64,000 nucleotides of DNA from Candidatus Dojkabacteria bacterium (GCA_046753765.1 JBHHUN010000006.1:130-64129), one strand, 5' to 3'; shown: positions 34,698-44,621, counted from the stretch's first letter. Notes: generated by a model from the sequence alone, not told the origin. A program made the numbers and translations.

Positions 34698-35183
34698 ATG
34701 AGAAACACTATCCTGATCGTAGTAACAACATTCTTTTTCACTGCTTTGTTTCTGCATGTTTTCAATAATGTGAGCCCATGGAATACTGATGCAGTCCAAC
34801 TGGCAATCGAACGTTACGGTCTTGAAACTCAAGATAACTTCACTGAGTTTGTAGATCAGGCAATGGAATTCGGGCTCATCTGGAGCCTGATTGATATCAA
34901 GAACCTGCTGCTACTGTTAGCACTACTTGGTGGTGCAGTCGTTTCGGGATTTGCGGTGCTACACCTCATTATTGATAAGCTATTTGTTAAGAAATTCTAT
35001 GAGAAGCCAAATGTTTCTGTTGCGTTCAGAAGGGGTGTCCTGGTCTACCTTGTGATCGTTAGTCTGATTTTGCTGAGACTGATCGCCGGATTGTTTTGGT
35101 ATAATGCACTCGCGGTGTTGATCTTGGCAGTGTCGATTGAATATGCCTTCGTAAACTATTTTAAAGATAGAGGGAATGAATAA
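34698..35183 (+). CDS. Hypothetical four-TM membrane protein (no Cys; not DsbB/VKOR)
   Basis: 161 aa with four hydrophobic helices. Confidence 0.45.
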   Translation: MRNTILIVVTTFFFTALFLHVFNNVSPWNTDAVQLAIERYGLETQDNFTEFVDQAMEFGLIWSLIDIKNLLLLLALLGGAVVSGFAVLHLIIDKLFVKKFYEKPNVSVAFRRGVLVYLVIVSLILLRLIAGLFWYNALAVLILAVSIEYAFVNYFKDRGNE

Positions 35184-36924
35184 AAAGATACTCGTTGCAA
35201 TCGCTTGGCCCTATGTTAACGGCGATATCCACCTTGGACATCTTGCTGGCTACCTTTTGCCGGCTGACATTTTTGCCAGGTATCAGAGATTGAAAGGAAA
35301 TGACGTGCTAATGGTTTCTGGCAGTGACACCCACGGAACACCTATAACTGTACAGGCGGATAAAGAAGGGGTTTCACCCGAGGAAATCGTTGAAAAGTAC
35401 CACAAAAGTGATGTTGCACTGTTTAAACAGTACAAGCTCAGTTACAACCTCTACACTACGACGAGAACAGAAAATCACAAACGCGTCGTACAGGAGCTAT
35501 TCCTACAGCTGCTCGACAACGACTATATTGTTGTTGATACTCAGGAGCAGTACTACTCGAGTAAGGACGAGCAGTTTTTGCCGGACCGCTACGTAAAGGG
35601 GACGTGCCCTTATTGCGGGGCAGAACACCAGCGAAGTGACCAATGTGAAAGCTGTGGCCGTTGGATAGGCGATGGTGAGTTGGTTGCCCCTTACAGTGTG
35701 CTCACTCGGGCACCGGTTGAGCTGAAAGAGACAGAGCACTACTTTCTCGATTTCCCAAAGGCACAGAAAGAGCTTGAAAAGTATGTTGAGTCGAAGAAAG
35801 ATGTATGGCGAAACTGGATCTGGAAAGAAGCAAGTGGTTGGTTAAAAGAGGGGCTTGAGAAAAGAGCGATTACTCGTGATATGGATTGGGCAATTGAGCT
35901 CCCCATCGATGAAATCAAGAAGCGTCCGAAATCGAAACAGCTCAAATTCTTTGAGGGAAAACGGATTTACGTCTGGTTTGAAGCTGTTATTGGCTATCTT
36001 TCGGCTCCTCAAGAATGGGTTGATCTCAATGAGGGTGGAGAAGATAAGATTTTTCTTAAGACCAAAGGTCAGTCAAATGACTGGAAGGACTGGTGGATGA
36101 ATGGAGACTCCGAGCAGTTCTACTTCATGGGCCAGGATAACCTGGTTTTTCATACACTTATGTGGCAGGCAGAGCTGATGGGAAGTGGAGTCGACTATAC
36201 ACTGCCGCACAACGTTCTTGTTAACAAATTTATGAATTATGAGGGTAAGAAGTTTTCAAAGAGCAGAAACTGGACTATTGATTCAAAAGCCATGGCTGAT
36301 AAATATGGTGTTGACGCTGTGCGTTTTTACATCGCATCAAACTTCCCCGAAAACAAAGAGGGCGACTTCACCTGGGAGGGGTTTGTTGACTCGATCAACA
36401 ACGAGCTTGTCGCAAATCTGGGTAATCTGGTTAACAGAATTTTGAAGTTTATTGAGAGTAGCTTTGAGGGCAAGCTTTCCCCAGACGATTATGAGCTTGA
36501 TGAGAAAGTAAAAAACGAGGTTGATAGTGCATTTACTGAGATCGGTGAACATATTCAGAAAGGTGAGTTTGTTGCCGGGCTGGACAGAATAATGGAACTT
36601 ACGCGATTCGGTAATAAGTACTTCGACAGCTCAAAGGTGTGGAAGGTTGCAAAAGATCATCCCGATGAAGCTGAGAGGATTCTCATGAACATGATTAATC
36701 TGATTAGTGCGATTCCTTTCATTTTAGCCCCGTATCTGCCCGAGGGAACAGGGAAGCTTTGCATGTACCTCCGTTTTAAACCGTTAAACCCGAAGGTCGG
36801 CACAGATCTTTGGCAACCTACTTTCCGCAACAGTTTTGAGCTTAATCATGAGGTTAAACCAGTTTTTGCAAAGCTGGAACGGGACACGGTGTTAGCCGAA
36901 AAAGAAGGAACTTCTGATGAGTAA
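35176..36924 (+). CDS. metG: Methionyl-tRNA synthetase
   Basis: Class I HLGH (WPYVNGDIHLGHLAGY), zinc knuckle CPYCG...CESCG, KFSKSRNW (KMSKS), anticodon-binding helical domain. Confidence 0.9.
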   Translation: MNKKILVAIAWPYVNGDIHLGHLAGYLLPADIFARYQRLKGNDVLMVSGSDTHGTPITVQADKEGVSPEEIVEKYHKSDVALFKQYKLSYNLYTTTRTENHKRVVQELFLQLLDNDYIVVDTQEQYYSSKDEQFLPDRYVKGTCPYCGAEHQRSDQCESCGRWIGDGELVAPYSVLTRAPVELKETEHYFLDFPKAQKELEKYVESKKDVWRNWIWKEASGWLKEGLEKRAITRDMDWAIELPIDEIKKRPKSKQLKFFEGKRIYVWFEAVIGYLSAPQEWVDLNEGGEDKIFLKTKGQSNDWKDWWMNGDSEQFYFMGQDNLVFHTLMWQAELMGSGVDYTLPHNVLVNKFMNYEGKKFSKSRNWTIDSKAMADKYGVDAVRFYIASNFPENKEGDFTWEGFVDSINNELVANLGNLVNRILKFIESSFEGKLSPDDYELDEKVKNEVDSAFTEIGEHIQKGEFVAGLDRIMELTRFGNKYFDSSKVWKVAKDHPDEAERILMNMINLISAIPFILAPYLPEGTGKLCMYLRFKPLNPKVGTDLWQPTFRNSFELNHEVKPVFAKLERDTVLAEKEGTSDE

Positions 36925-37741
36925 GATCTTGCCCTTCACAGATCTCTTTGACTCACACTGTCACTTAAATGATTCCAGATTTGATGAGGATAGAGACGAG
37001 GTTGTAGATCGTGCAATTGAGACAGGTGTGAAACATATCGTCGATGTTGCCGTCGATGTTAATTCAGCCGGGAGATCCTTGGAGCTGAGTGGGAAGTATA
37101 AAGGGGTTGTACACTCTACTGTTGGCATCTATCCTGAGTTCTTGATACCCGGTGCGAGTATGTTTAAAGGGGAGGTGGGAGAGGATGAAGTTCTTGCCAG
37201 GATTGAAGATATTGATAGTTTACTATCCAAACACAAAGGCAGGTTTCTGATGGTAGGAGAGTGTGGTTTGGATTATTATTGGTTGGTGAAGAATGTCAGA
37301 GGTAAAGAAGAGTTTGACAGGAGTGTCTCTCTTCAAAAACTCTTGTTTGAAGAGCAGATTAAATTGGCAGTAAAGCACAAGCTTCCATTGACCGTTCACC
37401 ACCGTGAAAGCACAGACGATTGCCTTGAGTTGCTCGCAAAATACCCTGAAACCAGGGCCATCTTTCATAGTTTCACTGGTGACCTTAGACAGGCAAACGC
37501 TATCCTTAGTGCAGGGCACAACGTTGGAATCAATGGAATTATCACGTTTCCTAATGCGACTGAGTTGCAACAAGTGGTTAAGGGTATCCTGGACGGAGTT
37601 TCGATTGAGTCACCACAGGATCTGTATGAAAAAGGAGTCTACCTGGAAACCGATTCGCCATATCTTGCTCCACAAGCAAAGAGGGGTAAGAGGAATGAAC
37701 CGGAGAATATATCGGCAATATTTCGTTCCCTTGTACCGTAA
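36917..37741 (+). CDS. tatD: TatD-family metal-dependent hydrolase
   Basis: FDSHCHLND motif, ECGLDYY and TIM-barrel His/Asp ligands. Confidence 0.85.
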   Translation: MSKILPFTDLFDSHCHLNDSRFDEDRDEVVDRAIETGVKHIVDVAVDVNSAGRSLELSGKYKGVVHSTVGIYPEFLIPGASMFKGEVGEDEVLARIEDIDSLLSKHKGRFLMVGECGLDYYWLVKNVRGKEEFDRSVSLQKLLFEEQIKLAVKHKLPLTVHHRESTDDCLELLAKYPETRAIFHSFTGDLRQANAILSAGHNVGINGIITFPNATELQQVVKGILDGVSIESPQDLYEKGVYLETDSPYLAPQAKRGKRNEPENISAIFRSLVP

Positions 37742-37862: not shown

Positions 37863-39083
37863 ATGGAGTCACTGCATCTCTTAGGTGTTGACGAGATTGG
37901 CTTTGATATAATCTCTAGAGGAGTTCTTCCTTCAACGGGGGATTTAAGTAGACAGATACAGCCTGGGGACACAGTTTTCTCACAGGATTCTCGCGTTGTC
38001 TCCCGAATAAATGAACTTCTCGGACAGCACTCCATGGTTGAGGGTTGGGGAATAGTCGAACGTGGTGGGGAGGCACGTAGGATTCATTTTGGTGAGGATG
38101 CAGAGCATTTGTCGGGACTTATAACTTCAGATCCTGGTGTTCGTCAAACAGCATTACTGTCTAGAAGGAATGGGAATATGCTAGCGGTTGCTAGGTCATC
38201 AGGAGGGTATGGTTTTATAGACTACAATTCTCCGTTGGATACCGAAAGGATAGAGTTTCTTGCAGCTGCGATAAATCCTATACTTCTATTAAAAGGTAGC
38301 TCTGAGGAAAGCGATAAAGAAGAGTTTTTGCTCAGCTTTGGTCAGCTTGTGCAAGATAAAGAGGTACGTCATGCTTTGAAGTCAAGATTCACGAGTCTTA
38401 ATCTTCGAGCAGGTATTATCAAGAGTAGAAAAAGTGCGTTAGAGCACCTTCCGTTTGAGGCTCTTAGAGTTGTGAAAGAATTGGAGAGGTTAGATTCAAC
38501 TCTATGGATTATGGATGAGGTGGATAGACAAACTGAGCTTACTGTGCGCAGGGGGCTCGGACTAGTCGGAAGTTCTATTGGTACACACGACTTTGCACAT
38601 ATTACATATATCGAGCAAGGATTGCAGGATAGACTTGTCCCAGCTCGCACGTTTCTACATCTCTTAGAAACCGTTAACAATGCTGCTGTTGGTGGCAAAG
38701 CGACGGCGGTGGTAATTTGCGCGAAGAAGCATTCGGCCGATGAAATTGAGTTTTCTGTGCTCGATAACGGAATGGGGATGCAGTATGCGGATATGGTTAA
38801 ATACATCAAGCCAGGTGTTTCAGGAACAGGTAGTACAGGACAGGGATTACCCGCGATTATCGAGTACTTTGGTAGACAAGGAATTCAGGTCACCTTGAAA
38901 TCTTATGGTAATACTACGGAATCGCCTTTTTGGTATGAAGTGCAACTTAATCCGGCAGGGTCAGAGGGAAGCATACAGGTACACGTTTCTTTGAAGAGCA
39001 CTCTAGAGGACGTCCAAGGAATCTGGCCTGATCGAATGAGTGGGTCAGAGGTGAGCGTAATACATCCTGTATCGAGCTCCTAA
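37863..39083 (+). CDS. GHKL/HATPase_c-like ATPase domain protein (paralogue A)
   Basis: C-terminal N-box FLHLLETVNNAAVGG, G1 box LDNGMGM, G2 box GTGSTGQGLP; N-terminal 250 aa have no recognisable HisKA. Confidence 0.5.
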   Translation: MESLHLLGVDEIGFDIISRGVLPSTGDLSRQIQPGDTVFSQDSRVVSRINELLGQHSMVEGWGIVERGGEARRIHFGEDAEHLSGLITSDPGVRQTALLSRRNGNMLAVARSSGGYGFIDYNSPLDTERIEFLAAAINPILLLKGSSEESDKEEFLLSFGQLVQDKEVRHALKSRFTSLNLRAGIIKSRKSALEHLPFEALRVVKELERLDSTLWIMDEVDRQTELTVRRGLGLVGSSIGTHDFAHITYIEQGLQDRLVPARTFLHLLETVNNAAVGGKATAVVICAKKHSADEIEFSVLDNGMGMQYADMVKYIKPGVSGTGSTGQGLPAIIEYFGRQGIQVTLKSYGNTTESPFWYEVQLNPAGSEGSIQVHVSLKSTLEDVQGIWPDRMSGSEVSVIHPVSSS

Positions 39084-39169: not shown

Positions 39170-40183
39170 ATGAGTATCTATATCGAAACTGGGCAACACA
39201 GAACTAATACGAGACAGATGAAAAGCTCTCTTGTTGGTAGTTATTTGGTGGACAGTGAGGTTCCCATTACTGCAGACGGGTTTACAGAGTTTGAAGGAAG
39301 TGTTCTTACAGGGTTTACGAACATAAGAGAAGGAAAGACCGCTAGTGGTGAGGCTCCTCCATGGGAGCGTGACAGTGTGGATGAGCTGGATGAAATGTGG
39401 TCAATACTCTGCCTCGGCAACTTTCAGGACCCTTTTGAGCCCTCTCCTTTTGAGAAAGCGGCAGATCATCTGATGCATAACATTTGGGCGAAAGTGGCCG
39501 GGTCAATTCATGTCTTGAGTTCGCCCGATGGGGAGGTTACAGAGGATCTTCTACATGTACAAGCGACCTATCTTACGAATATGATCGCTCTAAAAAACAT
39601 ATCCGACTTAGCCAGGAACCACTATGAAACTGATAGGTCTTCATCAAGGCAAAGTTCGTTCAGTTTATCTGTAGTAGCACGAACGCTTAACCTGATGGGC
39701 AGGAGGAATAGTGCCTCGGTAGAAACACTTTTTAATGGTAGTCCTGCAGTAGAGTTGGGCGCGGAGGTTGAAATAGACTCATTCGCAGCTATCCATTTGA
39801 TAGAACTTGGATTGGCAGGAGTCACTTCAAGTGCGGAGCAACATGAAGTCAAGATTGATGTGCAGCAAACCGGTCTTGGGACGAGTATTACGGTTGATGA
39901 TACTGGGGGCGGTATAGACCCCTCTGTCGCAGGGAACGTTTTTCAGATGGGTGTCTCCACTACAGGAGGGGGAAAGGGAAAGGCGTATTTGGCAGACTGG
40001 GTAAAGTCCCGTAAGGGGAAACTGTCAGCAACGTCATTTGCGAAAGGAAACTGCCTGGGGACTTATACTGATGCACTTGACCCAGAGAATACGCGCTCAA
40101 TTCAAAGGACTGACGAACCTTACAATACTCGCTTTGCCTTATACATTCCCGATCAACAGCTGGTCATCGGGATTGCTGCCTAG
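39170..40183 (+). CDS. GHKL/HATPase_c-like ATPase domain protein (paralogue B)
   Basis: N-box-like AAIHLIELGLAGV, G1 VDDTGGGID, G2 TTGGGKGKAYL; extended -10 TGGTATAAT at 39117-39125 upstream. Confidence 0.5.
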   Translation: MSIYIETGQHRTNTRQMKSSLVGSYLVDSEVPITADGFTEFEGSVLTGFTNIREGKTASGEAPPWERDSVDELDEMWSILCLGNFQDPFEPSPFEKAADHLMHNIWAKVAGSIHVLSSPDGEVTEDLLHVQATYLTNMIALKNISDLARNHYETDRSSSRQSSFSLSVVARTLNLMGRRNSASVETLFNGSPAVELGAEVEIDSFAAIHLIELGLAGVTSSAEQHEVKIDVQQTGLGTSITVDDTGGGIDPSVAGNVFQMGVSTTGGGKGKAYLADWVKSRKGKLSATSFAKGNCLGTYTDALDPENTRSIQRTDEPYNTRFALYIPDQQLVIGIAA

Positions 40184-43053
40184 CCAGCTTGGTACGGCCA
40201 ACGCGCATACATTATCGTCTCTGTATCACCTTCGATCTTTGGAAACTCTTTCCACACCCTCTCTGTTATGAAAGGGATGAATGGATGCAGCAGGATCATG
40301 TAGTTTCTGTAAACATGGTAGAGCGTCCATTGGGCAGCCATTCTGCTTGTCTTTGCTTCATCTGATGCATTAATCTCATTCCCATCGCGGTCTTTGGTAT
40401 ACAGCCGTGTTTTAATCTTCTCGAGATAGATATCAGCGAATGTGTGCCAGAACGATTCGTAAAGCTCTTGAGCAGCAACTCCCAGTAAAAATTTATCCAT
40501 ACGTTTTTTTGTATCCTTACAGAGTTTGCTAATATGGTCCAGCACCTCTTTATCTTCGACTTCAAGTTTGAGGTCCTCTTTAGTGAGACTCGTGACATCA
40601 TCTGCGCCCTCAAGGTTAGTAAGCGCGAACTTACCTGCATTCCAGATCTTGTTTAGGAATCGCTTAAAGCCTTCCAGCTTCTCGTACGAGATAGGATAGC
40701 CAGCGCCCGCTTTGTTACCGACTATGTACATCAACCGCAATGCGTCTGCGCCGTATTTATTAATTATGTCATCGGGCATCACAACGTTCCCCCTTGACTT
40801 ACTCATCTTCTGTCCATCAGGTGCTTTTACCAAACCATGTAAATAGACGTCTTCAAAAGGGATTTCGCCTTGAGTATAGATACCGAGCATGATCATTCGT
40901 GAGACCCAGAGTTCAAGAATATCGTAAGCTGTCTCCATTACGTGAGAAGGGTAAAAGGTGTCCATCAGATCATGTGCCGTAAGTGTTGCATACGGCCACT
41001 GACCGGAGGAGAACCATGTGTCGAAAACATCATTGTCCTGGATCCAGCCTGGTTCGGCAATGTTAAATTTAAGCTCTTCCAGATTATTTGCATCTTCTTT
41101 ACGGGATTCTTCAGGTGTTACATGCCATAATTTTCTCTTCAATATCCTGATAATGCCGACATGCGCAACAACAAGTATGTTTTTCCCTTCGTACTCTTCA
41201 ATTAGTTTCTCAATAAAGTCCTCGACTCTTGTTTCAACCTCTTCAATAGATTCACCGGATGGTAAATATGGTTGGTAGTTTGGGTGATTTTTTGCGGCGA
41301 GATCAGGATGCTTGTTTGCAAACTCATCCCAGGTAAGACCCTCGGCCTCGCCAAAATCCCGCTCAATAAGGAGGTCTTCAACCTCAACCTCAGCCCCAAG
41401 TTTCTCTGCGATTATCTCTGCCGTCTGGATACTTCTTTTGAGGGGTGAGGTGAGAACGATGTCATATTTATTTTCGCCAGATTCAGAATACTGCTCTGCT
41501 TGAGTTTTTCCGCTTTCGTTCAAAGGCAGGTCGGTCCTTCCTGATAGTTTGCCCTCTTTATTGTCGTCAGTTTCGCCATGCCTTATCACTGTCAGGGTGA
41601 TACCTGGTGGGTCAGTCTGTACCCTTGCCAGACCTTTCTGTGCGGCATCATAGATGCCAGCAATAGGCTTCCCGTCTATTGTTTCGACTACCTGTCCGTT
41701 TTCGTCTATGTGTTCACTAAGCTCTCCTTTATACCAGACCGGTATACGATACCCCCACCATAGCGAGCGGGAAACAGGCCAGTCATGCAGGTTTTCCATC
41801 CAGTTAAGATACTTTTTTTTCATGTAGTCGGGGTGGATGTGGACCCTTCCACTTTTGACGACATCAATGGCCGGTTTTTTTAGTTTCTCAACGTCAATGA
41901 ACCACTGTGATGACATTATCTGTTCTATCACAGCTTTAGAGCGTTCGCCGATCATTACTCTTTGGGTTATTCTCTCTGTTTTGATAACCAGATCCCCAAG
42001 GTCTTTTACTACCTCTTTCCGACAGTCTTCGGTAGTCATGCCTATATACTTCCCCGGAATCGGACCGGTCATCTTTGCGTCTTTATCTATCACGTTCACG
42101 TATCCGATTTTTCCTTTTACGGTCTTTTGTTCGGAGTTCCACTCGTTCATGATGACATAGTCTTCGTACGCGTGGGATGGTGTGAGCTTGAGGGCTCCTG
42201 TACCAAATTCCATTTCGATTCTTCCCGAGCTTATGATTGGGATTTCGCGTTCAACTAAAGGAAGGATGACAGTTTGACCGATTAAGTGCTTGTAACGTTT
42301 GTCTTTGGGATCAACAACAACAGCAGTGTCTCCCAGCATTGTTTCGGGGCGGGTTGTGGCTACAGTTATGTGTTTAGTATCTCCGTCCGCCTCCTTTAAG
42401 GGGTAGTTAATGTAGATAAGTTGAGATTCCCGCTCAACTCTTTCTGTGTCAATGTCGGCGAGTGTAGTTTGAGCCACAGGGTCCCAGTTAACGATTCGCA
42501 CACCCTTATAGACCATGTTGTCGTCAAACATCTTTAGAAAAGTGCCCAGCACGGTGTCGACTATCTTTGGATCAAGGGTAAACAGGTCGCGGTCATAGTC
42601 ACTTGAGAGACCGATACGCTTCTCATCATCAACGATGAGTGGCCTCAGTTTTTCAAAGTGAGCGTACGCTGCCTTGTAAAACTTCTCGCGGCCCATGTCT
42701 GCCTTTGATTTCTTTTTGTTTTCTAAGAAGATCTTTTCAACCAGCACTTCCCCTTGGATTCCAGCGTGATCACGTCCAGGTTGGCCAAGGACTTTCTTGC
42801 CGAGTATTCTTTGGTAGCGAAGCATTGCATCTTGGTAAGCAAATCCTGAGACATTACCTATGTGAGGGCGGGAGTATGCGTTTGGTGGCGGATTGATGAT
42901 GCAAAAAGGTGAACGGGCGTCTTTCTCCATCTCTTCTTTCGAGAGTAGTCCTTTATCGCGATCGTACTCAGGCTTGTAGAAGGGATTGTCAAGCCAGAAC
43001 TTCAGTATCTCTTCTTCGGTTTTGGTTGCGTTGTACGGGCCTTTTGGTAGCAT
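40180..43053 (-). CDS. valS: Valyl-tRNA synthetase with an inserted histidine-phosphatase (PGM-like) domain
   Basis: INPPPNAYSRPHIGN...GQPGRDHAGIQ (ValRS HIGH region), CP1 editing TTRPETMLGDTAVVV, WPVSRSLWWGYRIPVWY, DVFDTWFSS, KMSKSRGNVV. Between WY (about residue 441) and DVFDTWF (about 675) sit roughly 190 extra residues containing LTVIRHGETDDN...VAHVGIIRIL (the RHG...H histidine-phosphatase signature). The ORF is continuous over 957 aa. Confidence 0.85.
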   Translation of the reverse strand: MLPKGPYNATKTEEEILKFWLDNPFYKPEYDRDKGLLSKEEMEKDARSPFCIINPPPNAYSRPHIGNVSGFAYQDAMLRYQRILGKKVLGQPGRDHAGIQGEVLVEKIFLENKKKSKADMGREKFYKAAYAHFEKLRPLIVDDEKRIGLSSDYDRDLFTLDPKIVDTVLGTFLKMFDDNMVYKGVRIVNWDPVAQTTLADIDTERVERESQLIYINYPLKEADGDTKHITVATTRPETMLGDTAVVVDPKDKRYKHLIGQTVILPLVEREIPIISSGRIEMEFGTGALKLTPSHAYEDYVIMNEWNSEQKTVKGKIGYVNVIDKDAKMTGPIPGKYIGMTTEDCRKEVVKDLGDLVIKTERITQRVMIGERSKAVIEQIMSSQWFIDVEKLKKPAIDVVKSGRVHIHPDYMKKKYLNWMENLHDWPVSRSLWWGYRIPVWYKGELSEHIDENGQVVETIDGKPIAGIYDAAQKGLARVQTDPPGITLTVIRHGETDDNKEGKLSGRTDLPLNESGKTQAEQYSESGENKYDIVLTSPLKRSIQTAEIIAEKLGAEVEVEDLLIERDFGEAEGLTWDEFANKHPDLAAKNHPNYQPYLPSGESIEEVETRVEDFIEKLIEEYEGKNILVVAHVGIIRILKRKLWHVTPEESRKEDANNLEELKFNIAEPGWIQDNDVFDTWFSSGQWPYATLTAHDLMDTFYPSHVMETAYDILELWVSRMIMLGIYTQGEIPFEDVYLHGLVKAPDGQKMSKSRGNVVMPDDIINKYGADALRLMYIVGNKAGAGYPISYEKLEGFKRFLNKIWNAGKFALTNLEGADDVTSLTKEDLKLEVEDKEVLDHISKLCKDTKKRMDKFLLGVAAQELYESFWHTFADIYLEKIKTRLYTKDRDGNEINASDEAKTSRMAAQWTLYHVYRNYMILLHPFIPFITERVWKEFPKIEGDTETIMYARWPYQAG

Positions 43054-43120: not shown

Positions 43121-43156
43121 TTTACCGAGCTAGTTATTAATAACTAGCTCGGTAAA
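43121..43156. repeat. 36-bp perfect palindrome TTTACCGAGCTAGTTATTAATAACTAGCTCGGTAAA in the valS leader
   Basis: Exact reverse-complement symmetry read directly from the sequence; sits between the T-box terminator and the valS start. Confidence 0.6.
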
Positions 43157-43157
43157 C

Positions 43158-43202
43158 GAAAAAACCCCTGACCGATTACCATTCATGATAACAGGTCAGA
43201 GG
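43158..43202 (-). terminator. Intrinsic terminator of the valS T-box leader
   Basis: Minus-strand ACCUCUGACC...GGUCAGGGG stem followed by UUUUUU (plus 43158-43163 aaaaaa). Confidence 0.55.
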
Positions 43203-43385
43203 TCTTCTATTAGACGGTACCACTCTGAGTTTCACTTGATCAGCTGTAACGGGCTTACCCGGGAGGTTCTTGCCGTCACCCTAATTAACTTAGGATCTAC
43301 GGTTTTTCCTCCGGCCTGCCGGGCTGCGAGCTTGTCTCCTGCCTGGCTGGTTCGGTGACGAGTCGAACTCTGACCTTTGGTTATT
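43158..43385 (-). promoter_or_regulatory. T-box riboswitch leader of valS (candidate GUC specifier, F-box CCGUUA, T-box AGAGUGGUACCGUC, terminator)
   Basis: Minus-strand RNA contains CCCGUUAC (F-box) at plus 43246-43253. The T-box-like AGAGUGGUACCGUC sits at plus 43213-43226; its UGGU would pair with the ACCA end of tRNA-Val. A terminator follows immediately. GUC followed by A, in the loop of a short GUUCG/CGAAC hairpin about 135 nt upstream, is a candidate specifier. Confidence 0.6.
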
Positions 43386-43450: not shown

Positions 43451-44621
43451 TTAGAATTCGCACATCGGCGATCCTTCTGTTGTGGTATGTATCTGGAGTA
43501 TCTTTCTAGCAACTGCGACAGGAGCATCGGGTGATACCCGCATTGCGAGGACAGCCAGAGTGTAATCGTCTGTACGCATCACTTTATTCATCAATCGTGA
43601 TTCCGGTCTGAATAAATTCTCTGCCTCCTCACAAAGTTGACTGGCTAGTATACGATTCGCTTTTGCCCTGTCGGTTCCGTGTCTAGTTCTGACATGTCTG
43701 CAAATATAAAAAGTAAAGTCGTAGTTTATTATGTTTTTTGCTTTCTTTATTATTTTGATTTGATTTTTACCGCCCGAATCTCCTGAGTGCAAAATTAAAA
43801 GCACCTATTGGGAAATTTTCTGAAAGTGCGAATAGATCAGTTCGCCCTGCATCAATGTCTGCTCTCCTCAATCTAGAAAGAGACATACCCAGTGGTACGT
43901 CAAGTTCTGGCCCTATTGTCAGAAAATTCGAGGTTAGTAACCCTCCGGTGAATTGATTGACGAAATAAACATGTTGGTCCTCACCGCCACTTTGGACAGT
44001 TGCAACATTTACCGACCAGATTGTATCCAGCAGTTCAGCAGGGTGTTGAAATATGGAGTTACTGGGGAACTGAACAAAGAAGTGATCGGATTCATTCTGA
44101 GCCCTTGTAAGGTCTAGCAGGGTACGCAGTGCAGTTCTATCCTCGGTGTTTGTATAGCGAAGATCATCTTTCGCGTAATGGTAGGCTGTGTCGGGTCCTC
44201 CTGTTAGGGGTGGAAGAAACCCGAGGTCATTAGGCTGATCCGCGGGTGGGAAAGTTGATTGGTATGCCTGAGTTTCACGTATCGTGCGTTTCGACCCGAG
44301 TGGTATACCCAGTCTCTTCATTTGGGTTACTTCTACCGTATGCAGTGAAGCTGCAAAAAGGAACGGCCTGTTTTCTGGATCAGGAATGCCGGGTTCAAAC
44401 AGAAGAACTGTTGCGCATGTAAACGGAACATTCGGGCTTAACACAACAACTTGAACGAATTGCTGGATTGTACCACTGGTGCGAAGTCGTGTTGCTACTC
44501 CGATTTGAGACCCTTTCAACGCTTGGGTAACAAACTCTCCTGCCTCGTGCCTGAGCCTTGCTAATGTTTTAGCCTCTGAAGCGTCCTCACCACTGAGTTG
44601 TTCTGATATGGCTTCGTTCAT
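43451..44621 (-). pseudogene. Frameshifted gene (two overlapping ORFs, 284 + 117 aa), possibly a trypsin-like serine peptidase (GDSGG motif)
   Basis: ORFs 43767..44621 and 43451..43804 overlap by 38 nt in different frames; the downstream piece begins ...ILHSGDSGGKN, immediately after the frame break. Confidence 0.45.

Follow-up and report, generated by a model that had tools for sequence, protein, structure and literature searches.

The window studied here is a 64,000-nucleotide (nt) stretch of DNA from Candidatus Dojkabacteria bacterium (GCA_046753765.1 JBHHUN010000006.1:130-64129). On its minus strand, at positions 40180-43053, lies valS, a gene that encodes a class Ia valyl-tRNA synthetase (ValRS) with a histidine phosphatase nested inside the chain. 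The gene is one uninterrupted open reading frame (ORF) of 957 amino acids (aa) followed by a stop codon, and its assignment draws on the ORF, Pfam, NCBIfam, an AlphaFold2 model, and the best solved fold (1GAX). Pfam family tRNA-synt_1 matches the protein in two stretches (E 2e-102) and Anticodon_1 matches residues 834-953 (E 1e-25), while two NCBIfam valS equivalogs exceed their cut-offs (NF004349, 729.6 vs. 704; TIGR00422, 705.8 vs. 612.1). The initial annotation of this DNA had described a continuous 957-aa valS with the hallmarks of ValRS, and the intact frame and the passed NCBIfam cut-offs bear this out. The NCBI entry for the exact protein (P0001), from one contig of a metagenome-assembled genome (MAG), is named 'class I tRNA ligase family protein [Candidatus Dojkabacteria bacterium]', so the DNA comes from a small-genome bacterium of the Patescibacteria.

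Structure predictions were based on an alignment of ValRS only (A2) and an alignment of the domain only (A3); an alignment combining full-length ValRS with free-standing phosphatases (A1) was dropped, as it placed the free proteins outside the insert. The AlphaFold2 model of the full chain (120-sequence alignment) has a mean predicted local distance difference test score (pLDDT) of 94.7 and a predicted template modeling score (pTM) of 0.89, and contains no disordered linker. The top solved fold for the whole chain is ValRS from Thermus thermophilus (1GAX; template modeling (TM) score 0.66/0.73), whose sequence is matched with an E-value of 1.3e-118: query residues 44-442 correspond to 30-417, and 668-953 to 444-706.

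All motifs of the synthetase are kept along the chain. The HIGH-type signature PHIGN occupies residues 63-67 (42853-42867, minus strand, as are all features of the gene given below); among 120 relatives H64 and G66 never vary and N67 almost never does. The HIGN form in place of HIGH is a trait of Dojkabacteria ValRS. In connective polypeptide 1 (CP1), the editing motifs ATTRPETMLGDTAV (residues 232-245) and GTGALKLTPSHAYEDY (residues 284-299) lie at 42157-42360, and residues 227-345 correspond to ValRS editing domains of solved structure (1wka and 1wk9), with both the Thr-rich motif and the conserved Asp in place. The CP2-CP3 linker, WPVSRSLWWG (residues 425-434, 41752-41781), is homologous to the linker of yeast isoleucyl-tRNA synthetase (IleRS), ARDWNVSRNRYWG, which lines the pocket that binds the tRNA-site inhibitor reveromycin A (PMC7955072). 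The native CP3 subdomain follows at residues 439-483 (WYKGELSEHIDENGQ...ARVQTDPP, 41605-41739), as delimited by the secondary structure of the model and by plain relatives; in the model it consists of several short strands and one helix (residues 439-478). The strand WIQDNDVFDTWFSS (residues 670-683, 41005-41046) opens the second Rossmann half, both in the sequence and in the alignment with 1GAX. KMSKS is found at residues 749-753 (40795-40809), and the anticodon-binding domain assigned by Pfam (residues 834-953, 40195-40554) runs to the end of the protein. Bacterial ValRS typically continue into a C-terminal coiled-coil domain that binds tRNA; this domain is absent here, the alignment with 1GAX ending at residue 706 of 862. 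Plain relatives of 750-790 aa lack the coiled coil as well; its loss is a lineage-wide trait of Dojkabacteria, unrelated to the insert. The ValRS core is expected to carry out tRNA(Val) charging and editing in the usual way.

The phosphatase occupies residues 484-668 (41050-41604; Pfam envelope 488-666, i.e., 41056-41592), as defined by Pfam, the alignment, and the model. His_Phos_1 (PF00300) matches residues 488-666 over profile positions 2-182 of 194 (E 6.1e-48; 163.5 bits, cut-off 21.7). In comparison with a plain Dojkabacteria ValRS (P0021, 781 aa), the sole large difference is a block of 183 residues at a single site. The initial annotation had estimated about 190 extra residues between the WY and DVFDTWFSS motifs, at 41075-41600, where roughly 45 would normally be found; the block now placed lies within 25 nt of that position, and the spacing from WY to WIQD amounts to 47 residues in plain relatives of the lineage, in keeping with the estimate of 45, and about 26 in T. 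thermophilus ValRS (418-443). The same annotation spoke of an insertion into the catalytic core. The domain is nested in ValRS, as stated; its site is a different one. In the model, the native CP3 comes first, then the phosphatase, and then the WIQ strand, so that by alignment and prediction the insertion site is the end of the variable CP3, at the junction with the second Rossmann half and outside the Rossmann core proper. CP3, the stretch between the CP2-CP3 linker and the second Rossmann half, is structurally variable across species (IleRS definitions, PMC7955072, PMC7191050).

The active site of a branch-1 histidine phosphatase appears complete in the insert. Both strings quoted in the initial annotation as evidence of a full branch-1 signature (ITLTVIRHGETDDN and ILVVAHVGIIRIL) are present, and the hidden Markov model search finds the catalytic RHG...H set intact. 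From sequence and conservation, the RHG motif (41575-41583) comprises R491, the predicted phospho-accepting nucleophile H492, and G493; SPLKRS (41431-41448) contains the second phosphate-binding arginine, R540; ERDFGEAEG (41338-41364) contains E564, the predicted general acid/base; and VAHVG (41155-41169) contains the second catalytic histidine, H631. In 29 insert-bearing ValRS and P0020, each of R491, H492, R540, E564, and H631 is conserved in at least 90% of the sequences, and in 102 family members the two arginines and two histidines are invariant and the glutamate near-invariant. A further motif, ESR...N, is recognized in the alignment within EESRKEDANN (R651 and N657, 41083-41112). It is retained in the embedded copies, varied in the free-standing copies linked to valS (see below), and missing from two other free-standing homologs in the alignment.

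Modeled alone, the insert reaches a pLDDT of 94.2. Its fold is closest to phosphoserine phosphatase PspA (4ij5/4ij6; TM score 0.90, root-mean-square deviation (rmsd) 2.1 Å), followed by the CobC α-ribazole phosphatases (TM score 0.84-0.88). The other fold neighbors are likewise small-molecule phosphatases, including the riboflavin-pathway histidine family phosphatase 9mmh and GpgP, with overall rmsd values of 2.1-2.7 Å; the protein phosphatases SixA, Sts, and PGAM5 are absent from the top 50 fold matches. Membership in the named subfamilies was considered and rejected for CobC (TIGR03162, 130.2 vs. a cut-off of 162.9), PspA (91.7 vs. 350), and SixA (29.2 vs. 74.5), as well as for dPGM, GpmA, and GpmB (dPGM_arch, 75.6 vs. 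225; pgm_1, 58 vs. 81.7). What is encoded is a two-enzyme polypeptide, a complete PhoE/CobC/PspA-like branch-1 histidine phosphatase nested in CP3 of a ValRS, and at the level of sequence both halves look competent.

Nothing in or around the insert points to a mobile origin or to a faulty assembly. An intein or mobile element was rejected, given that there are no Pfam matches to Hint or homing-endonuclease domains, no repeats flanking the junctions, and no compositional break (GC content 0.436 in the insert vs. 0.461 in the remaining gene). A stop codon or frameshift at the junctions, named in the initial annotation as a possible sign of a chimera, is likewise not found there. PADLOC gave no matches for the insert and four neighboring ORFs.

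The same architecture recurs widely. His_Phos_1 occupies the same alignment position in at least 28 other ValRS clusters drawn from NCBI, JGI, ENA, and Logan assemblies; these are 42-67% identical to the query, their source names, where present, are Dojkabacteria or WS6, and the carriers of the same-site insert include a complete 1.17-Mb genome (L005, CP129475.1). In ValRS of Falkowbacteria, Komeilibacteria, and the Parcubacteria group, His_Phos_1 lies directly after IPVWYK, ahead of VYVG, the strand that the Dojkabacteria insert follows. These domains also fall into separate clades of the neighbor-joining (NJ) tree, the only kind of phylogeny used in this work. The separate points within CP3, together with the separate clades, suggest independent insertions.

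The domain is also found in type-2 IleRS of the candidate phyla radiation (CPR), recognized by a DUF5915 C-terminus, which carry two copies of His_Phos_1 (P0244, P0246, P0249, P0252, P0258, and P0247, one of them labeled Candidatus Peribacteria), and a ValRS-like fragment, P0263, carries four. The search for phosphatase homologs covered 1.84 billion representatives; among the 150 matches listed, 26 representatives reach 500 aa or more; 24 of them are class Ia synthetases that carry the domain internally, and no C-terminal fusion occurs among the 26. Free-standing proteins of about 400-430 aa built of two tandem His_Phos_1 domains (e.g., P0256, P0257, and P0259-P0262) form a sizeable family among the closest relatives of the insert; they may be related to the tandem pairs of IleRS. 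The initial annotation had regarded the insertion as unfamiliar and had mentioned a lineage-specific ValRS insertion as a contrary outcome. The insertion is indeed recurrent in Dojkabacteria, in ValRS of other Patescibacteria, and in CPR IleRS, and is in that respect lineage-specific; the impression of unfamiliarity holds insofar as no paper describing it was found.

In several relatives the orthologous phosphatase is a gene of its own beside valS. Among free-standing proteins, P0121 is the closest relative of the insert (47% identity, E 2e-39; next best 1e-24). It shares a contig (L002) with a ValRS that has no insert at the phosphatase site, referred to below as site 3; its gene lies 5 kb downstream of valS, adjoining tatD-metS. 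Four more ValRS without a site-3 insert are accompanied by a phosphatase gene downstream on the same strand. In L083/L084 its start overlaps the valS stop codon (ATGA), in L086/L087 it follows an intervening ORF of 121 aa, and in L089 and L018 it begins 44 bp and 190 bp downstream of valS, respectively. The embedded copies and the free copies linked to valS are jointly monophyletic in 81 of 100 NJ bootstrap replicates. In one locus (L085, 12310-13744), no phosphatase is annotated downstream of a plain valS (P0023); two ORFs of 357 and 119 aa, without a family match, overlap or follow the end of valS.

Upstream of valS lies a T-box-like leader (43159-43368, minus strand), delimited by folding, by related leaders, and by RF00230 matches to its homologs. 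It begins with a specifier hairpin, GUUCG-ACUCGUCAC-CGAAC (43350-43368), whose loop presents the Val codon GUC. The conserved element AGAACCUCCCGGGUAAGCCCG lies at 43250-43270 and the T-box core AGAGUGGUACCGUC at 43213-43226. The core folds into an antiterminator of the classic kind, CAGAG[UGGUACC]GUCU...AGACCUCUG, with UGGUACC as its 7-nt bulge. This fold is mutually exclusive with an intrinsic terminator at 43159-43204, which has a folding energy of -27 to -30 kcal/mol and is followed by a U-run. The same elements occur in six related valS leaders (e.g., L004 5791-5956, L018 5783-5948, and L003 3920-4060); the specifier is GUC in all six, and the specifier stems differ in sequence yet still pair. 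Of Stem I, only a specifier hairpin of 4-6 bp directly after a -10-like box was found, the 80 nt from there to the AGAACC motif not having been analyzed in depth for a distal platform that would dock the tRNA elbow.

Rfam model RF00230 gave no match to the leader of the window, either in gathering mode on the whole window or at E<=10 on segments of 951 nt and 371 nt. Three of the six related leaders match it with 58.7, 34, and 29.5 bits (E 3.6e-10 to 0.012), the gathering score being 93. The T-box leader proposed in the initial annotation is supported by the GUC hairpin, the UGGUACC-bulge antiterminator, the terminator, and the matches of the homologs, although not by an Rfam match of its own; the proposal is right in substance, the leader being a T-box-like variant whose Stem I appears truncated and which scores too low with the curated model. 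The presence of a GUC-specifier T-box-like leader on insert-bearing genes supports their identity as the housekeeping valS, and the specifier is indirect evidence that the enzyme attaches valine to tRNA(Val). T-boxes with a truncated Stem I have been reported for actinobacterial ileS leaders. Those share with the present leader a short specifier hairpin, a UGGN-bulge antiterminator, and the regulation of an aminoacyl-tRNA synthetase gene, and differ from it in their expression platform, which is here an intrinsic terminator. A perfect 36-nt palindrome, TTTACCGAGCTAGTTATT/AATAACTAGCTCGGTAAA (43121-43156), lies between the T-box terminator and the ribosome-binding site of valS; it may form a second hairpin or serve as an operator.

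In the window, valS is convergent with metS (35176-36924, plus strand) and tatD (36917-37741, plus strand). This arrangement is conserved across Dojkabacteria (L002, L083, L085, L086, L089, and L090), and despite the kept metS-tatD-valS neighborhood no free-standing copy of the phosphatase was found in the window. Two plus-strand ORFs (37863-39083 and 39170-40183) with weak, below-cut-off matches to HATPase_c (E 3e-4 and 4e-5) lie between tatD and valS, the second overlapping the valS stop codon convergently. HATPase_c-like ORFs occupy the slot that the free-standing phosphatase holds in several relatives, and PADLOC matches none of them. On the other side of valS, relatives usually have a ComF-like phosphoribosyltransferase gene on the opposite strand; the ORF in that position in the window (43767-44621) has no family match. 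Two related loci (L004 2342-2821 and L010 2348-2820, minus strand) have a transfer-messenger RNA gene some 3 kb upstream of valS; none was found in the 64-kb window.

The phosphatase is one of several enzymes inserted into ValRS loops in these relatives. Site 1, the entry of CP1 between YIKYPL and ATTRPETMLGD, hosts a HAD-IA hydrolase, a Ham1/ITPase, or an ASCH-like or unassigned module of about 96 aa (L010 6001-9822 (P0016), P0007, P0009, P0046, P0091, P0002, and P0022). The ASCH-like module has only a weak Pfam match, below the cut-off (E 0.046), and the assignment of a second site-1 module of about 96 aa ('DLPF.FG..DYKI') as a pyrophosphatase was rejected for want of Pfam support. Site 2, some 20 residues upstream of site 3, holds a GNAT acetyltransferase in P0062 and P0109. 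Site 3 itself may contain His_Phos_1 alone, a Ser_hydrolase (PF06821) alone, both together, or two Ser_hydrolase domains; one or two of the latter are present there in P0020, P0050, P0053, P0057, and P0083. As many as four modules (HAD, one without a family, Ser_hydrolase, and His_Phos_1) are combined within a single ValRS in P0007 (1477 aa).

The interpretation put forward here, held at slightly under even confidence, is that the protein is a bifunctional ValRS-phosphatase module, a dedicated functional pair merged into one chain by domain insertion in this lineage. A phosphatase clade tied to valS, whether nested or in the same operon, points to a functional module. In addition, a one-base change at the ATGA overlap would suffice to yield a C-terminal fusion; since all fusions seen are instead internal, in CP3 or other loops, arose at CP3 points that vary by lineage, and occur in IleRS too, the position of the phosphatase beside the synthetase presumably matters. 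On this interpretation, H492 would attack a phosphomonoester held by R491, R540, and H631, E564 would protonate the leaving group, and the phospho-histidine would then be hydrolyzed. Such phospho-enzyme chemistry at the corresponding histidine is established for the histidine phosphatase superfamily. At a guess, the likeliest substrate would be a small nucleotide-like phosphomonoester near the acceptor-end/adenylate site. The initial annotation had proposed an alarmone or a 3'-phospho or 2',3'-cyclic tRNA end as possible substrates, or else a regulatory role; the structures closest to the domain are those of phosphatases acting on small molecules.

Several observations weigh against a dedicated pair. 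The insert reaches no curated functional subfamily cut-off in NCBIfam. One copy in the comparison of 29 insert-bearing ValRS and P0020, P0041, is degenerate, with RH changed to CY and R540 to P (the sole such case there), and VHG or AHG replaces RHG in L007 (5980-9333), L008 (5106-8366), and L011 (4877-7405); embedded copies with lost catalytic residues may be pseudo-enzymes kept for a non-catalytic role. Within the joint clade, the free copies are monophyletic in 20% and the embedded copies in 2% of NJ replicates, too few to settle their order or to tell insertion from fission. No phosphatase was found near valS in the more distant Dojkabacteria, the flank seen around each related locus being 6-10 kb. 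In the CPR IleRS, CP3 mostly holds both copies; at times one of them instead follows the DCWFESG strand or stands where the anticodon-binding domain starts, and this placement in several different loops argues against one precise geometry. That the gene is the only valS of its genome is supported solely by a scan of genome contigs, in which no assembly had a second locus among the 80 loci kept. Finally, the presence of unrelated enzymes in the same loops fits a permissive loop with a passenger enzyme equally well as a specific coupling.

This last point leads to another explanation, which is possible and rather doubtful: the insert could be a housekeeping small-molecule phosphatase lodged in a permissive CP3 loop and mechanistically unconnected to aminoacylation, with the fusion only securing co-expression and saving regulatory DNA in a reduced genome. 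The nearest structures (PspA, CobC, 9mmh, and GpgP) are all small-molecule phosphatases, the unrelated HAD, Ham1, GNAT, and Ser_hydrolase domains share the same loops in relatives, and the more distant Dojkabacteria manage with a plain ValRS and no phosphatase nearby. The insert also evolves faster than the core, with a median identity to the query of 47% vs. 68%. Against a passenger, loss of the stop codon at the ATGA overlap would yield a C-terminal fusion, yet the fusions seen are all internal. The insertion points vary between lineages, the domain also occurs in IleRS, and the operon linkage is conserved in several sublineages. The multidomain contexts of the closest His_Phos_1 domains, among the matches listed, are almost all class Ia synthetases.

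An unlikely alternative is that the domain acts in cis on the 3' end of tRNA, stripping a 3'- or 2'-phosphate, the product of an opened cyclic phosphate, or the remnant of 3'-pyrophosphorylation from CCA, so that damaged or toxin-modified tRNA(Val) becomes rechargeable. The insert is located in CP3, directly after the CP2-CP3 linker that in yeast IleRS forms part of the reveromycin A pocket (PMC7955072), and the fusion is always internal. The CP1 editing domain offers a precedent for a nested hydrolytic domain that acts on the tRNA 3' end, and in relatives the CP1 region has taken up other phosphohydrolases (HAD and Ham1). A possible source of damage is known as well, in that toxSAS toxins pyrophosphorylate tRNA CCA ends (bioRxiv 10.1101/2021.04.30.441581; PMC11559606). 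These points are opposed by the small-molecule character and the capped active sites of the fold neighbors, and by the PADLOC result; moreover, a monoesterase would have to act more than once on a pyrophosphate, and the singling out of Val and Ile is left unexplained. We know of no branch-1 histidine phosphatase that acts on RNA ends. In its wider form, equally unlikely, the proposal would amount to a second quality-control or repair site on CPR class Ia synthetases, with cis dephosphorylation of the acceptor end letting ValRS and IleRS recharge tRNAs blocked by nucleases or toxSAS. If that were true, the operon and nested forms would be two states of one repair module, and the HAD, Ham1, serine-hydrolase, and GNAT insertions would make the synthetases platforms for enzymes of tRNA ends and nucleotides.

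A non-catalytic or regulatory role is more doubtful still. The domain might serve as a structural or tRNA-binding prop in place of the missing coiled coil, as a ligand sensor, or as a protein phosphatase reversing an inhibitory phosphorylation of the synthetase. Dojkabacteria ValRS does stop after the anticodon-binding domain, the high pTM suggests rigid packing of the domain against the core, and the domain is kept in some lineages despite the loss of catalytic residues (P0041 and the VHG/AHG variants). Against this stand the conservation of each of the five catalytic residues in at least 90% of sequences, with P0041 as the single degenerate copy of that comparison, and the plain ValRS of the same clade, 750-790 aa long, which manage without either coiled coil or insert. 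The free-standing operon form shows that the domain does not have to belong to the ValRS scaffold, and neither the top 50 folds (no SixA, Sts, or PGAM5) nor the SixA score (29 bits vs. 74.5) favors a protein phosphatase. An artefact, whether from chimeric assembly, a pseudogene, or redundancy with another valS copy, is barely credible: the exact protein is known from one MAG contig, yet the frame is continuous, the same architecture recurs at the same residue in 28 independent clusters from four data sources, the complete genome L005 included, the catalytic residues are conserved, there is no compositional break, the valS cut-offs are passed, a T-box-like leader precedes the gene, and no assembly has a second locus among the 80 kept.

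Comparison with known systems places the bifunctional ValRS-phosphatase among several partial parallels. With T. thermophilus ValRS (1GAX/1IVS) it shares the split Rossmann fold, CP1 editing, CP2, CP3, KMSKS, and the helical anticodon-binding domain; it differs in having a 183-aa enzyme in a loop of about 26 residues, PHIGN for HIGH, and no C-terminal coiled coil. With PhoE, CobC, and PspA (PF00300) the insert shares the fold (TM score 0.84-0.90), the RHG...R...E...H set, and a length of about 185 aa, whereas its nested position, its scores below the subfamily cut-offs, its clade-specific ESR...N motif, and its membership in a valS-linked clade set it apart. IleRS with GNAT (NCBIfam NF040702, 'ileS_w_GNAT') is likewise a class Ia synthetase with an extra enzyme domain, and GNAT is present in P0062 and P0109; the inserted enzyme is different, however, and the window protein matches NF040702 through its synthetase part only (139 bits vs. 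1999). The CP1 editing domain is also a hydrolytic domain nested in a Rossmann connective polypeptide, and it works in cis with the synthetic site; unlike CP1, which is universal and hydrolyzes mis-acylated tRNA, the phosphatase is lineage-restricted and lies in CP3. The best NCBIfam match to the insert, at 133 bits, is the Rv2228c-type RNase H/acid phosphatase (NF005567), which joins a CobC-like phosphatase to a nucleic-acid enzyme. That fusion is end-to-end and its partner unrelated, and the score of the insert is far under the cut-off of 326.

No published account of a histidine phosphatase, or of such enzyme insertions, in ValRS or IleRS was found in full-text searches of the literature. 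The protein would belong with the multidomain bifunctional synthetases, and the sequences themselves are already public under the names 'valine--tRNA ligase' or 'class I tRNA ligase family protein'. Aminoacyl-tRNA synthetases rank among the most thoroughly studied enzymes, and to our knowledge the editing domain is essentially the only additional catalytic domain nested in one of their connective polypeptides. In CPR ValRS and IleRS, CP3 has repeatedly taken up a second hydrolase family, in up to four copies, which alternates with a translationally coupled downstream gene. The insertions provide a naturally made map of the points at which a class Ia synthetase tolerates added domains, and an example of nested fusion or fission between neighboring genes, of which a natural split form exists; the leader exposes a T-box variant missed by the Rfam model. 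Gene fusion together with the conserved neighborhood is a strong pointer to an unrecognized functional link between tRNA charging and a phosphomonoesterase.

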